Below, piece after piece: positions 54,001-63,000 of a stretch of DNA of 64,000 nt; position 1 is the first letter of the stretch, and every line of letters begins with the position of its first letter. The stretch covers positions 85,741-149,740 of the forward strand of contig JAEWCC010000049.1 of the NCBI GenBank assembly GCA_023390815.1, read 5' to 3'. The position numbers were made by a program. Source of the stretch: Bacillota bacterium. Lineage in GTDB: Bacteria > Bacillota > Clostridia > Christensenellales > SZUA-584.

Positions 54001-57000
54001 GATGTAGGCGCGAAAGCGGAAATCCATGCTTTGCTGCGCGGGATCGTATCTAAGGGCAAATCGGTCATCATTGTCTCGTCCGAATTGCCGGAGATTCTGG
54101 CTTCGTGCGACCGCGTCATGGTGATGTATGAAGGAAGAATGATGGACGTACTCAGCAACGACGGGAATTTGACGGAAGAGCGCATTATTCAGTTAGCATC
54201 GGGTATTCGTTGATTTTCATTCCCATCAGGGAAGTGAATAAAAAAGGAGGAGAATATATGAAGAAGTTATCACTCGTTCTGGCGATCATGCTGGTGCTGG
54301 GTACTCTGCTTACCGCATGCGCGCCCCAGGAAGTACAGGCTCCCAAACCGGAGGGTGAGGCGAATGCAGCGCTTCCCGGTGAAGGAGAGGTTTACTGCGT
54401 GATCGGATCCTTATTCCAGCTGGAGTTCTTTGATGCGCTCAAAGCCGGTGTAAGTGATGCGGCCAAAGAAATCGGGGCTACCTGGTATTATGCCGGCCCG
54501 CAGGAATTTGTTCCCGATCAGATTTCTCAGGCAATCGATCAGGCGGTAGCAAACAAAGTGACGGGCATCATTCTTCATGGCCAGGCTGTGGAAACAGCGG
54601 CTGCGATCGATAATGCGATTGCTGCGGGCGTACCGGTGATCTGCGTGAATACGGACATCCCTTCCAACCGCCTGTCGTTCCTGGGCTGCAATCCTTATAA
54701 CGCCGGTTATGATATGGGCGAGCACATGGCGAAGCTGATTGAAGGCCAGTCGGGTACCGTTCTGATCTCCACCGCCATCAGCGCCGGACAGCCGTCGGCA
54801 CTGGATAACCTCAAAGGCGCAAAAGATGCGCTGGCAGCGCTGGCTCCCAACGTAAAAGTCGTGGAAGTGGACGATACCGCTGACGCCAACATTGCCGCAA
54901 CCAACATCGGCGCTGCGCTGCAGGCAAACCCGGATGTCATCGGCATTATCGGCCAACAGGCGTACACCGCTGTTGGCGCTACCACCGCTGTTCGTGAAGC
55001 AGGCCTGACCGGCAAGATCCAGATCATTGGCCGTGACCGCGACGCTGCGACGCTGGAACTCATTAAAAACGGAGAACTGGCCGCTTCCTATGCGCAGAAC
55101 TCCTACGTCGAAGGCTATATCGCGCTCAAATGGCTCAACGAATATGTCGATGGCAAACTGAAAGTTATCGGCGATTATCTGGGCGGCGGCGTGAACCCGC
55201 TTCCTCCGACAGTGGACTCCGGTTCCATTGTTATCACCAAGGAAAACGCCGAACAGTTCGAAGCAAAGTATACGTATGAAGTGACAGCCAAGAACTAAGC
55301 ATCCATTCAACGCATTTAAATCAGCACCATATTGACACATGTCCAGCCGGAGGATTATCGCCTCCGGCTGGATATGAAGTGGAAAGGCAGCCAGATGAAG
55401 AAAATCGGACTACTTCCGTTGTACCTGGAACTTTATGATGAGACGTGCGCTTTCATGCGCCCTAAAATTGAAGATTTTCGCGATATCATCCTGAACCAGC
55501 TGAAAAATCGCGGGCTGGATATGGTATGCGCGCCGATCTGCAGGTTGAAAGAAGAATTCGCGGCGGCGGTCAGGCAGCTGGAGGAGAATGGAGCCAGCGC
55601 GATTGTGACGCTGCACCTTGCATATTCACCGTCGCTGGAATGCATCGACGCATTGTCAAAGACGGATTTGCCCCTCGTTGTGCTGGATACAACTCAAAGT
55701 TATGAATTCGACTCATCTGTCAGCTCAGATGAGATCATGTATAACCATGGCATTCACGGCGTACAGGACATGTGCAATCTTTTAAAACGGCATGGAAAAT
55801 CGTTTGAGGTTTTTGCCGGGCACTACGAGCAATCTGATGTGCTTGATCGCGTGGCGCGTTATTGCCGGGGCACCCAGATTGCAGCCGGGTTTTGTAATTC
55901 ACGCGTCGGATTGGTAGGGAGCCCCTTTTGCGGTATGGGTGATTTCCATGTTCCCTTCGGCGAGCTTCACGATACGTTTGGACTGGATATCGTGGAGTAT
56001 GATATGCGCGATGCCCAGCAAAGAATTGAGCGTATATCGGATCAGGAGATCGATTCTGAGTGCCGCATAGACAAAGAAGAATTTGAGTGGGACCCTTCGG
56101 TCACCGATGAAATATATCAGCGTACGGCAAGGGTTTGCCTGGCTCTGCGCAAATGGACAGACGAACAAAAGCTGACGGCTTTATCGGTCAACTTCCTTGA
56201 GACTGAGGGAAACCCCGGTCTGCCTGTTATGCCGTTTACGGAGTGCAGCAAGGCGATGACACGGGGAATCGGTTATGCAGGCGAAGGCGACGTGCTGACG
56301 GCAGCGCTTTGCGGAGCGATTCTGCAATTCTTTCCCGAGACGACGTTTACGGAAATGTTCTGCCCGGACTGGAAAGGCGGCAGCGTTTTCCTTTCACATA
56401 TGGGAGAGCTGAACTATCGCGTTTGCAGCGAAAAGCCCCGGCTGACGGAGATGATATTTCCATACACGTCTGCAGAGAACCCGACGGTGGCATATGGCAC
56501 GTTTAAGCCCGGCAAAGTGGTGCTTGTCAACTTGGCGCCCGGCGGCAAAGGGCGCTATACGCTGATATTGGCACCCGGGGACGTGCTCCGTGTGGGCAGA
56601 GATAATAATATGGCCAACAGCGTAAACGGCTGGTTCAAGCCGCAGCAGCCTTTGCCGGATTTTCTGGAGAAGTTTTCACGCGTGGGCGGAACCCATCACT
56701 CCGTCATGGTTTATGCAGATTGCTTGGATGAAATGAGTGCTTTTGCCGCAGCCATGAAGTTTGACTGCGTAATTATTTAAGCGATAAGGGGTGAGCACGT
56801 GAGCGGACGGGAATTGATGTGGAACACATTGTCGGGAAAGCCGACGGGCCGCGTGCCGGTGGCACCGTTTATATTCAGCAACATCGTTAATGAGTATAAC
56901 GGGGGCGAGCCACAGGACCCGATCGCGGCGGGAATCGCGCTGTACAGACGTTTTGGCTTCGATATTCTGCTGAGAAACTATATCATTTCCGATTATTTGG

Positions 57001-60000: not shown

Positions 60001-63000
60001 GACGTGATGGACGGACACTTTGTTCCCAACCTGTCTTTCGGCCCCGATATCGTTCACGGTATCCGCGCAAGCAATCGGCTTTATTTTGATGTGCATCTGA
60101 TGGTGGAGCATCCGATGCAGTTCGCCAAAGCATTTATTGACGCAGGCGCGGACGGGATCACGATCCACCCGGAGGCGCAGGATGATGTAACCGAGGTCCT
60201 CGCGGTATGCAGAAAGAAAGGCGTGCAGTTTGGCCTTGCGGTTAAGCCGAAAACGCCGCTGAACATGGTGGTGCAGTTTCTGCAGGATTGTGATAACCTG
60301 CTGATTATGAGTGTTGAGCCGGGATTCGGCGGACAAAAGTTTATTGCGGATACACTGGAACGAATCCGCGAGGCGGTGGATATTCGCAAAAGCCTCAACG
60401 CGCGCTATCTCATCGGTGTCGACGGGGGTATCAATACGGAAACGGGCAAACAGTGTATCGAGGCCGGGGCAGATGTTTTGGTTGCGGGCAGCGCGGTCTT
60501 TAAAAGCAGTGATCCCGCAGCAGTGATTGCTGCATTGAAAGGGGAACGGAGCAGGTGAAAGCAAAAGGATGGGAAATGGCAAGGCAGGCATTTATCACAG
60601 AAGCGGACTGTCTGGAAAAAGCTTTTTCCTTTATTGATGAAACAGAATTCTCGAATGCGGTGCGGGCTCTGGCGGCAGCGCCGCGCATAGCGGCAAGCGG
60701 ATGCGGGCATACGGGTATTGCATGCCAGCACTTTGCGCATTTAATGTGCTGTATCGAGCGGCCTGCGCGGTTTATTTCTCCCTCAGAAGCCGTACACGGC
60801 GGGACGGGCTATCTGCAAACGGGGGATGTCATATTGCTGGCTTCCCGGGGCGGGAAAACGGGAGAATTATTGCCTATTGAGCGTATTTGTAAAGCGAAGG
60901 GAGTTACCGTGATCGCGGTCACGGAAGACGTGCAGTCGCCGCTTGCGCAGGATGCGGATATTGTTTTAAAGCTTTATATCACCCGCGAGGTTGACAAATA
61001 TAACTGTCAGGGAACAACGAGCAACACGGTCATCAACTGCTTATTTGACGCGCTGCAAACGGCGATTATCGAGGAGATCGATTATCAGAACGAAAGGTTT
61101 GCTTTGATACACCCTGGCGGAGCTGTGGGCGAACGGCTGAATACAAATGGCTGATGAATCCACTGAGTTCACAATGGATTCAGTCATAATTAAAGTCGCG
61201 CTACTCGAGCGATAATTTACTTTGATTGCATGCTCAGGCTGCCACCTTTTTGGCAGCCGTTTTGTATTCCGCCGCTTGTTTTCAAGCTCAATAAGGGGAA
61301 ACACGCTTGTTGTCCGCTGAGCATATTGGTTGTGTATAAATGTTAATATCTATAATCTTAAGATTCTACATAACAACTGAATATATCCTTTATCCGTGTT
61401 CCTATAAATCTCGTGACTTTTCCGCTGGGTATATAAGACATAAATCGATGAAACCGGCTTTAGCGAGCGAAATGGTTGAAATGCTTCCGACAGGCATCCT
61501 GCGTTCTCATCGGATAATAAATCACACCAATAAATCGCCTTTGTGCTTGTGTTCTCCGGAGATTGAAAATTCCACCCACTCTGCGATGTTTTCCGCATGG
61601 TCGCCGATCCGTTCAAAATATTTAGCAATCATGAGTAAATCGACCGCTTGCTCTCCGGTTTCGGGGGCATGGCCAATGATTTCAATGAGTTCCTTTTTGA
61701 TTGTATCGAACAGATCATCTACGATGTTATCCATCTCTATCACTTCACGGACGAGCTCCAGGTCCCGTTTTACAAAAGCATCCACGCTTTTATTCACCAT
61801 CTGGATGGTTACATTCGCCATCTGGGGGAGATGCACCAGCTGTTTTATATAAGGCTTATCCGCAAGATAAATCACGATCTCAGATATATCCGTCGCCTGA
61901 TCCCCAATACGTTCCATATCCGTGATCATTTTTAAGGCTGCAGAAATCAGCCGCAGATCCCTTGCAACGGGTTGCTGCTGCAGTATGAGCGTTAAGCAAA
62001 GGTTTTCAATTTTCCGTTCCTTCAGATCAATTTCATGGTCAAACGCGATCGCCTTGTTCGCATTCTCCACGCTTTTTTTAAGCAAAGCCTGGGAAGCGTT
62101 TTGAATCGCATTCTCTATCAGCATTCCCATCTCAACCAATTCCGCATTTAACAGTTCCAGTTGTTCATCAAATCTTGTTCGCATGGGTCCAGCCTCCCCG
62201 TATTTATCATCCTCAAGAGCTTATTTTCAGAATGCATCTGTCTTATCATATTCACTGGCGCTGCCAGTAGAATGCAAGCGCCATACACCATATTCTATCA
62301 TGTTTGCATTATTGATAAACCAATAACAATTGAATGTTATGATATCGGCTTCGGGACAAGCCCTTGCGTTTCTCAGCCGAACCTTCCGGTAATATAGTCG
62401 CTGGTCCGCTTGTCTTTTGGGTCTGCAAAAACTTCAGTCGTTATACCGCCTTCGATAAGGCTTCCCATCAACATGAATGCGACGCTGTCCGCAATCCGCC
62501 CCGCCTGTTGAACGCTATGAGGCGCGATTACGATGGTGAATTGTTCTTTAAGCTCCCTTAAGGATTCCTCAATCTTGGCCGTGGATACCGGATCAAGCGC
62601 CGAGCATGGCCTGTCCAGCAATATAACCTCCGGCTCCAACGCCAAAACACGCGCAATGCACAGGCGCTGCTGCTGACCTCCGGAGAGCCTCGCCGCCGGA
62701 GTGTGCAGCCTGTCCTTAACTTCGTCCCAAAGCGCAGCCATACGCAAAGCACGCTCTACGCCCACTGATACGACCGCTTTGCTCTTCCTGCTCAGCCGGG
62801 GCCCTAAAGCGATGTTATCGAATATAGACATAGGCAGAGGCGTCGGCACGTCAAAAACCATCCCTACCCTGCGACGCAGTTCGGTTACATTGACGTCCGG
62901 ATCATAGATGTTTTTCCCGTCCAGTAGGACCTCTCCTTCCGCGTACGCTCCCGGAGCCAAGTCGCCAAGCCGGTTTAATGAGCGGAGCAGCGTCGTTATT

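Follow-up and report, generated by a model that had tools for sequence, protein, structure and literature searches.

We analyzed a 64,000-nucleotide stretch of DNA (here called the window; assembly GCA_023390815.1, contig JAEWCC010000049.1, positions 85,741 to 149,740, forward strand) from an uncultured Christensenellales bacterium. It probably holds a single catabolic locus with divergent transcription, which its own LacI-type regulator probably represses. At the core of this locus is a gene for a protein resembling triose-phosphate isomerase (TIM), followed by a gene for a protein of the YjbQ/UPF0047 family; this TIM-YjbQ module is conserved, and the set of seven genes that contains it is not conserved as a whole. 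Judging from sequence, we favor, tentatively and with a probability of roughly 45%, an isomerase-kinase pathway whose phosphorylated product is rearranged by enediolate chemistry rather than cleaved. This would be a possible new, non-cleaving end to isomerase-kinase sugar pathways in gut and digester anaerobes. An initial annotation of this DNA had described one coherent LacI-regulated carbohydrate locus with a ribose-type ABC transporter and an unusual enzyme set, and our analysis agrees with that description.

Conservation of the TIM-YjbQ pair

One genome per GTDB species was scanned with an alignment of the TIM-like clade, which yielded 50 species-level loci from at least four phyla: Christensenellales, Oscillospiraceae, Lachnospiraceae, Anaerolineae, and a single metagenome-assembled genome (MAG) each of Kiritimatiellia and Treponematales. 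The cultured organisms among them are Christensenella intestinihominis, Mediterraneibacter massiliensis, and Enterocloster lavalensis. In every one of the 50 loci, the TIM gene is directly followed by a gene for an insert-bearing YjbQ protein of 164 amino acids (aa). The gap between the two genes is mostly 1 to 35 nt (52 pairs), and in the window the ribosome-binding site of the short YjbQ gene overlaps the TIM stop codon. The 50 loci also include 18 cases of a YjbQ gene immediately upstream of TIM, about half of which encode the 206-aa form. Some loci contain tandem TIM-YjbQ pairs, and several genomes have two or three TIM copies. For instance, two close pairs occur in L010, L012, and L014 (7.0 to 11.3 kb) and in L048 (9.4 to 12.5 kb), where the paralogous TIMs are 47 to 62% identical to the TIM of the window. 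In L010, L012, and L014, an AraA/FucI-like gene lies between the two pairs and the divergent TIM is paired with a long-type YjbQ, which suggests that each YjbQ type may originally have had its own TIM partner.

Neighboring genes, identified by tblastn and clustering of open reading frames (ORFs), were counted in the 44 loci that had at least 8 ORFs. At least two YjbQ genes were present in 29 of these, and the other neighbors of the module were reshuffled between loci: a CUT2 ABC ATPase (30 loci), a DeoR-family regulator (25), an FGGY kinase (23), an AraA/FucI-like isomerase from one of three subfamilies (22), an Amidohydro_2 protein (14), a LacI-type regulator (13), an SIS-domain protein (12), a DUF4432 protein (8), ribulose-phosphate 3-epimerase (RPE; 3, only in the closest relatives), and a uroporphyrinogen decarboxylase (URO-D)-like protein (0). 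The DeoR-family gene is the commonest recurring regulator gene, and in some genomes DeoR, TIM, and YjbQ genes stand alone among unrelated genes; characterized members of the DeoR family typically respond to sugar phosphates. The most frequent immediate neighbor of TIM-YjbQ is the SIS gene, which is adjacent to it in 12 to 16 loci. Co-conservation, which the initial annotation had named in advance as its refuting test, was found for TIM and YjbQ, and the URO-D-like and RPE genes fall outside the conserved core. Nonetheless, the URO-D-like gene recurs with AraA-like, FGGY, and Amidohydro_2 genes on metagenome contigs. Recurrent genes downstream of TIM-YjbQ in L009-L015 and L019 encode a xylose-isomerase-like TIM-barrel protein, a DegT/DnrJ-type aminotransferase, and an additional Amidohydro_2 protein, and pathways for amino or keto sugars may also make use of the module.

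TIM identity is 59 to 92% across the loci. Between phyla it is 73 to 88%, which suggests horizontal spread under strong constraint. On one metagenome contig (L054:246-8938), the run of URO-D-like, YjbQ, TIM, YjbQ, and SIS genes is immediately preceded by genes for a large serine recombinase and an AAA_25 protein, and the module may travel on a mobile element, which would fit the identity seen between phyla.

We examined 55 TIM-like proteins from the module loci, 51 of them directly followed by YjbQ. The catalytic residues Lys16, His97, and Glu145 were invariant in all 55. The position of the catalytic Asn in the N-x-K motif was Ser in 39 and Gly in 16, and it was never Asn, while Glu12 was present in 55 and Arg75 in 54. 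The phosphate-binding loop motifs EPxELIGxG, AAGI(T/S), and (A/S)SG were kept. The Asn is kept in the TIM of Pyrococcus woesei and in a more distant bacterial sister clade (NPKSY). Loss of the Asn throughout, with Glu12 and Arg75 conserved, suggests a changed substrate.

The TIM-like protein of the window scores above the cutoffs of NF003302, the archaeal-type TIM subfamily model (Table 1; cutoff, 132 bits), and of PF00121 (50.2 bits; cutoff, 20.1), and it reaches only 69 bits with the equivalog model TIGR00419 (cutoff, 130.6). Among solved structures, only archaeal TIMs are related to it, and that of P. woesei matches best (E = 7e-31, end to end). In this alignment the catalytic Lys and the motifs of loops 6, 7, and 8 are in register, and NHCER and EPTELIGSG, the motifs picked out in the initial annotation, align with the catalytic His and Glu. 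Escherichia coli TpiA gave no tblastn match at E ≤ 10 to this gene or elsewhere in the window. The archaeal-type profile and structure matches, together with the missing TpiA match, put the protein outside the bacterial TpiA lineage, to which EryH and TpiA2 belong, and on these grounds the EryH/TpiA2 identity that had been considered for it was rejected. The family is small: of 1.8 billion cluster representatives searched in full, just 1109 were related to it at E ≤ 1e-3, and 94 of them at E ≤ 1e-30. By these comparisons, the protein is a divergent archaeal-type TIM paralog. A housekeeping role, already doubted in the initial annotation, was rejected in view of its repressor-controlled accessory context, the two or three copies in several genomes, and the loss of the Asn. 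The label "triose-phosphate isomerase" is probably wrong for this clade.

On the same grounds, we find it hardly credible that the genes stand together by accident, with the TIM-like gene a housekeeping tpiA and the YjbQ and URO-D-like genes unrelated passengers. The 64-kb window contains no canonical tpiA, as this explanation would have it, but that is uninformative for the whole genome, and adjacency with coupled spacing in every locus across phyla speaks against it, as do the local repressor, the multiple copies, and the missing Asn.

The partner family, YjbQ/UPF0047, is present in all domains of life, and several of its members have crystal structures. Both YjbQ proteins of the window clear the PF01894 cutoff (27 bits; Table 1). 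With TIGR00149 (cutoff, 67.75 bits), the short form passes at 78.9 bits and the long form, whose gene has a GGAGG ribosome-binding site 7 nt upstream, falls just under at 63.3. Module YjbQ proteins share the motifs HHTTC and NTDxHLRS and carry about 7 plus 15 extra residues, including an HPGP motif, relative to E. coli YjbQ. In the searchable literature we found no physiological role for the family, only weak side activities, and no description of TIM-YjbQ pairing. The database name "secondary thiamine-phosphate synthase" comes from an activity that the literature regards as a weak side activity (PMC3010111), and no thiamine genes were seen in the cluster. Multicopy E. coli yjbQ bypasses pdxB, reportedly by way of 2-oxo-3-hydroxy-4-phosphobutanoate (PMC3010111). 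Since 2-oxo-3-hydroxy-4-phosphobutanoate is itself an alpha-hydroxy-keto phosphate, the bypass may be a weak hint toward the chemistry proposed below. The module thus gives a family without an assigned function its first clear metabolic context, and the strict, translationally coupled partnership with a TIM that is altered yet catalytically competent, in sugar-phosphate-regulated loci that exclude aldolases, leads to a concrete hypothesis for YjbQ for which three cultured carriers exist.

A candidate pathway and its alternatives

We collected the contexts of URO-D-like genes from an 80-locus metagenome scan and 8 further contexts (88 loci in total, 55 with at least 6 ORFs). Some of these sister clusters have the same AraA-like, FGGY, Amidohydro_2, and URO-D-like genes as the window and end in a DhnA-type class I aldolase. 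In these contexts, the DhnA-type aldolase and TIM/YjbQ never occurred in the same locus, and searches of the window and of all 50 TIM loci detected neither a DhnA-type nor a class II fructose-bisphosphate-aldolase-type gene. The aldolase-type clusters have no dedicated TIM. Characterized DhnA-type aldolases act on the end of their substrate that resembles dihydroxyacetone phosphate (DHAP), and both they and TIM grip the CH2OP-C(=O)-CHOH end; on this basis we propose the corresponding end of a longer sugar phosphate as the place where the TIM paralog acts.

In the pathway that we favor, the CUT2 ABC transporter would import a monosaccharide, possibly a rare or chemically modified one. The MtaA-like (URO-D-like) protein, with its possible metal site, might strip the sugar of a substituent, for example a methyl group, before the AraA-like enzyme converts it to a ketose and the FGGY kinase converts the ketose to a ketose phosphate. 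Where related loci would cleave this intermediate with the DhnA-type aldolase, this lineage would use the self-contained and apparently horizontally spread TIM/YjbQ module instead. In a sugar phosphate longer than a triose, the TIM paralog would shift the carbonyl by one carbon, via an enediolate, next to the carbon that bears the phosphate. Its product, or else its substrate, would be processed by the tightly coupled YjbQ protein or proteins, possibly in the form of a complex. In loci that have them, SIS and RPE would then deliver an ordinary pentulose or hexulose phosphate to central metabolism. A more specific version, in which the Asn-less TIM and its YjbQ partner(s) form a new type of sugar-phosphate isomerase system with two or three components that "walks" the carbonyl from a ketose-1-phosphate to a ketose-5- or -6-phosphate, with SIS finishing the conversion, is rather unlikely but a real possibility. 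If true, such a module would be a non-cleaving alternative to aldolases and would provide the first physiological function for YjbQ/UPF0047.

It is important to note that several observations weigh against the pathway that we favor. The FGGY kinases score best against xylulokinase, which phosphorylates the end far from the carbonyl, and this is a misfit with a ketose-1-phosphate intermediate. Three of the four catalytic residues are kept in the TIM-like protein, which could thus still be a genuine triose-phosphate isomerase. A protein of 503 aa (P0154) consists of a class II fructose/tagatose-bisphosphate-aldolase domain fused to an Asn-keeping archaeal-type TIM-like domain of the NPKSY clade; the fusion suggests that this sister clade may work with aldolases, and it fits ordinary TIM work downstream of an aldolase. 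The YjbQ fold search found no similarity to an enzyme of known mechanism or to any lyase fold, so that the role proposed for YjbQ comes from its context alone. Moreover, the conserved adjacency is, in our reading, partly due to a single unit having spread horizontally rather than to 50 separate events, and some cross-phylum MAG assignments (the single Kiritimatiellia and Treponematales MAGs) could be binning errors. TIM::YjbQ fusions were sought as a sign of a complex and none was found among the 150 best representatives, where the candidates were a chimeric sequence (P0121) and the aldolase::TIM-like fusion P0154.

Some of these observations would be expected if YjbQ were instead a bond-cleaving enzyme that replaces the aldolase and forms triose phosphate and an aldehyde, with the TIM-like protein a true TIM that equilibrates DHAP and glyceraldehyde 3-phosphate locally. 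We consider this the main rival, though an unlikely one. It would account for the mutual exclusion of TIM/YjbQ and DhnA-type aldolase in otherwise similar clusters, for the intact Lys, His, Glu, and phosphate loops, and for the aldolase fusion in the sister clade. It does not account for the pattern of Asn loss with conserved Glu12 and Arg75, for aldolase-type sister clusters that do without a dedicated TIM, or for the lack of likeness between YjbQ and lyases, and the frequency of SIS as immediate neighbor is better explained by an uncleaved sugar phosphate.

Tetroses and tetritols were among the substrates that the initial annotation had raised. The TIM-like enzyme would then be a tetrulose-phosphate isomerase of the EryH type, and the pathway one for erythritol, threitol, or erythrulose. 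We give this reading little chance. The type of chemistry would be the same, a carbonyl shift beside the phosphorylated carbon, and an FGGY kinase and a CUT2 transporter are present here as they are in the Brucella ery and Mycobacterium threitol pathways. Against it stand the archaeal-type lineage of the TIM-like protein and the absence of a polyol dehydrogenase, EryB/EryC-like, or RpiB-like gene among the cluster domain matches; erythritol and threitol families were likewise absent from these matches and from the recurrent neighbor clusters scanned. Further, the recurrent AraA/FucI-like isomerases belong to families that act on pentoses and hexoses, and RPE and the KpsF-like SIS protein point to pentulose or hexulose phosphates. 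We concur with the initial annotation that the exact substrate cannot be named from these data: the nearest solved relatives of the binding protein bind monosaccharides, but relatives with known ligands are too distant, and an assignment by that route was rejected.

A decarboxylase role for the URO-D-like protein appears unlikely. Only the superfamily model PF01208 was passed. A HemE-type decarboxylase was rejected at the ortholog level (TIGR01464, 30 bits; cutoff, 303), and the MtaA-type model TIGR01463 gave 62.5 bits, under its cutoff of 235; overall, its scores for MtaA, MtbA, and CmuA are higher than that for HemE. In a profile search of the PDB, the best solved relative was the Zn methyltransferase MtaA (E = 9.5e-7), with YHNCG aligned on LHICG, which we take to be the Zn-binding site of MtaA, the Zn ligands presumably being H-x-C ... 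C. Foldseek comparison of an AlphaFold model (predicted local distance difference test [pLDDT] score, 95) also placed MtaA closest (E = 2e-16; TM-score, 0.73/0.79), followed by HemE and then MetE. Across a 23-sequence alignment, YHNCG (H257-x-C259), Glu278, Asp308, Asp344, and Glu348 were invariant and the downstream Cys was not conserved. The protein is best described, from its profiles and predicted fold, as an MtaA-like accessory enzyme, possibly metal dependent, and not a decarboxylase. In the predicted structure, residues 72 to 118 form four long beta-strands inserted in the barrel, which could be a lid or a substrate-binding element.

Homologs of the URO-D-like protein with 62 to 75% identity are encoded between AraA-like and YjbQ-TIM-YjbQ genes on metagenome contigs, and homologs with 39 to 48% identity occur with Amidohydro_2, AraA-like, and FGGY genes in other phyla. 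In the 55 longer contexts, the neighbors were AraA-like (17), FGGY (16), Amidohydro_2 (14), a URO-D::B12-binding fusion (9; identified by Pfam), a DhnA-type class I aldolase (8; by NCBIfam), and TIM (5). Corrinoid partners were seen only beside distant homologs (36 to 40% identity), and no corrinoid or B12-binding protein is encoded in the 64-kb window. Such distant homologs lie beside URO-D::B12-binding fusions or beside a corrinoid protein and the reductive activator RACo in L060:5481-12226, L120, L121, L132, L136, L139, and L140, with the homolog directly adjoining the corrinoid protein and RACo in one locus. These clusters also hold a short-chain dehydrogenase/reductase, a metallo-beta-lactamase-fold hydrolase, an enolase-superfamily protein, an aldose-epimerase-like protein, and an FGGY kinase, and they may point to corrinoid-dependent demethylation of methylated sugars in anaerobes. 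Neither a corrinoid sugar demethylation system nor URO-D-family proteins in sugar clusters were found in the searchable literature; the mlp methyltransferase clusters concern methyl-sulfur and methyl-selenide metabolism and differ from this locus (PMC10418091).

The MtaA-like fold and motif, and the distant homologs beside corrinoid proteins and RACo, would also fit the salvage or catabolism of sugars whose terminal carbon is blocked, for example 5-deoxyribose, 5-methylthioribose, and 6-deoxy or O-methyl hexoses. An isomerase and a 1-kinase would produce a ketose-1-phosphate, which the sister clusters would cleave in the manner of a DHAP shunt, their aldolases being of the DhnA type that acts on a DHAP-like end; here, TIM/YjbQ would isomerize the ketose-1-phosphate, yielding a ketose-5-phosphate substituted at C1, with the methyl or methylthio group left to the MtaA-like protein. 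The methylthioadenosine (MTA)-isoprenoid shunt provides a precedent (PMC4958253). We nevertheless consider this route improbable: the aldose-ketose chemistry of SIS needs a free C1 hydroxyl, the URO-D-like gene is missing from all 44 species-level TIM loci that have 8 or more ORFs, the window encodes no corrinoid protein, and no nucleosidase or phosphorylase gene lies nearby.

Layout of the locus and its other genes

The enzyme gene set that the initial annotation had placed at 55395-61154 is intact: ORF calling gave seven co-oriented ORFs on the plus strand between 55.3 and 61.2 kb, and strong promoters and a terminator bound the locus (Table 1). The same genes are called on an identical public 313-kb metagenome scaffold (ENA ERZ28599064 scaffold_14), and close homologs are labeled Christensenellales. 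Domains were assigned by comparing Pfam and NCBIfam profile scores with the family cutoffs, and in this way the three minus-strand genes were assigned to Amidohydro_2, DUF4432, and FGGY kinase families. Gene starts were adjusted from ribosome-binding sites and public gene calls for the URO-D-like, long YjbQ, and SIS genes and, probably, for the FGGY kinase gene.

Table 1. Features of the sugar locus, with positions counted from the first nucleotide of the window.
Feature	Position	Strand	Basis or remark
FGGY-family sugar kinase	46700-48154	-	FGGY_N + FGGY_C; longest ORF reaches 48223, likely Met start 48154
DUF4432 protein	48165-49175	-	PF14486, 256 bits
Amidohydro_2 metal-dependent hydrolase-fold protein	49273-50286	-	PF04909
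Divergent promoter region	50334-50556		Two operator-like palindromes + two promoters
LacI-type regulator	50587-51612	+	LacI + Peripla_BP_4 domains; weak RbsR-like NCBIfam matches
CUT2 (ribose-type) ABC transporter	51709-55298	+	Pfam families on identical public contig
CUT2 permease	51709-52692	+	
CUT2 double ABC ATPase	52720-54213	+	
CUT2 binding protein	54258-55298	+	Peripla_BP_4
AraA/FucI-like isomerase	55395-56780	+	AraA_N, AraA_central, Arabinose_Iso_C
URO-D-superfamily, MtaA-like protein	56814-57920	+	URO-D PF01208, 92.6 bits
YjbQ/UPF0047 long form, 206 aa	57978-58598	+	PF01894, 87 bits
Archaeal-type TIM paralog without catalytic Asn	58615-59331	+	NF003302, 149.9 bits
YjbQ/UPF0047 short form, 164 aa	59341-59835	+	PF01894, 89 bits
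Ribulose-phosphate 3-epimerase (RPE)	59887-60558	+	TIGR01163, 252.7 bits
SIS-domain sugar-phosphate isomerase	60576-61154	+	SIS domain only
Intrinsic-terminator-like hairpin	61237-61258	+	8-bp stem, 6 G-C pairs, then T-run; closes operon after SIS gene

The 300-nt gap at 50.3 to 50.6 kb contains divergent promoters of the sigma-70 type, which match the consensus at 12 of 12 positions on the plus strand (50432-50460) and at 11 of 12 on the minus strand (50390-50362). TGCAC-N4-GTGCA palindromes occur in the intergenic DNA of the locus at 50334-50347, 50543-50556, and 51639-51652; two, including that at 51639-51652, are perfect, and one has a single mismatch. One lies downstream of each divergent promoter and the third between the regulator and permease genes. 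With one mismatch allowed, the window has 6 such palindromes, compared with 2.2 expected, and the other three lie outside the intergenic DNA of this locus. The palindromes in the locus are likely the operators of the LacI-type regulator. Between the binding-protein and AraA-like genes, a perfect 16-bp RNA hairpin (55338-55376, plus strand; -32.1 kcal/mol; z = -8.5) has no T-run, and it may be a transcript-stabilizing or processing element that raises expression of the binding protein relative to the downstream enzymes. Across all 64 kb of the window, riboswitches and other RNA families gave no Rfam match at the gathering score, and tRNA genes were absent. Directly downstream of the locus, genes for PhoU and a phosphate ABC transporter (pstB, pstA onwards; 61522-63978, minus strand) are apparently unrelated to it.

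The AraA-like protein has all three AraA Pfam domains and reaches 98 bits with NF002795, for which the ortholog cutoff is 622. Solved L-arabinose isomerases match it at E = 4e-23, and its motifs GEGD, FTEMF, SHMGE, and GGTHHS presumably correspond, by a reading of the sequence, to the metal-ligand motifs of AraA. By sequence, the product of this gene is an AraA/FucI-like metal-dependent aldose-ketose isomerase and not an AraA ortholog. The best NCBIfam match of the FGGY kinase is XylB, at 298 bits and under the cutoff of 380; its orthologs in L053 and L056 are 482 to 484 aa long. RPE passes at the ortholog level (TIGR01163 cutoff, 212.6 bits). The SIS protein scores 102.8 bits with the KpsF/GutQ model TIGR00393 (cutoff, 203.7) and aligns only to its SIS part (model positions 3 to 153 of 268). 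It thus resembles the N-terminal part of KpsF/GutQ, has no CBS domains, and by score is not a KpsF/GutQ arabinose-5-phosphate isomerase. The DUF4432 protein is possibly a mutarotase, and we found nothing relevant on DUF4432 in the searchable literature.

Comparison with known systems

Operons of the araBAD, fucPIK-A, and rhaBAD type share with this locus a repressor, a transporter, an isomerase of the AraA/FucI superfamily, and an FGGY kinase, and the logic, from sugar to ketose to ketose phosphate to central metabolite, would be the same. The class II aldolase-fold enzyme of the AraD/FucA/RhaD type was not seen here, and TIM-like and YjbQ proteins would take the last step. Further, the isomerase lies far under the AraA ortholog cutoff, and the locus has additional Amidohydro_2, DUF4432, and MtaA-like genes.

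The TIM of P. woesei (PDB 1hg3) and the TIM-like protein are about 33% identical over their full length. Both have the flexible loop 6 and the loops that bind phosphate, as well as Lys, His, and Glu at the catalytic positions. The TIM-like protein differs in having Ser or Gly in place of Asn, an invariant Glu12, and a near-invariant Arg75. Unlike archaeal TIM, it is bacterial; its gene belongs to accessory loci under repressor control, invariably has YjbQ next to it, and in some genomes is present two or three times. EryH/TpiA2 of the erythritol pathway is a TIM paralog recruited for a longer sugar phosphate, which is the type of reaction that we propose here; however, it is of the bacterial TpiA type, its partner genes differ, and the erythritol pathway is not known to include a YjbQ.

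The lsr system for autoinducer-2 (AI-2) includes a CUT2 transporter, the FGGY kinase LsrK, the isomerase LsrG, the DhnA-type LsrF, and, in Salmonella, the RPE-like LsrE. A CUT2 transporter, an FGGY kinase, and an RPE homolog are also encoded here, and a DhnA/LsrF-like enzyme occurs in the sister clusters. Another likeness is that lsr has a small oligomeric isomerase acting on an alpha-hydroxy-keto phosphate. In contrast, the kinase of our locus scores 143.7 bits against an LsrK cutoff of 528, an AraA-like isomerase is present, no LsrG-like family was found among the domain matches of the ten cluster proteins, and no DhnA/LsrF-type gene was found in the window. Because the scores fall far under the cutoffs, identity with the lsr/AI-2 system was rejected, and on sequence criteria the locus is neither an ery nor an lsr system.

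The Deep-Ykr RuBisCO-like protein differs from the TIM-YjbQ module in its unrelated fold, in being a single enzyme, and in its sulfur-salvage context. What it offers is a precedent for the proposed chemistry: in the MTA-isoprenoid shunt, the RuBisCO-like protein converts methylthioribulose-1-phosphate to methylthioxylulose-5-phosphate, that is, a ketose-1-phosphate to a ketose-5-phosphate, through a series of proton and carbonyl shifts rather than an aldol cleavage (PMC4958253).

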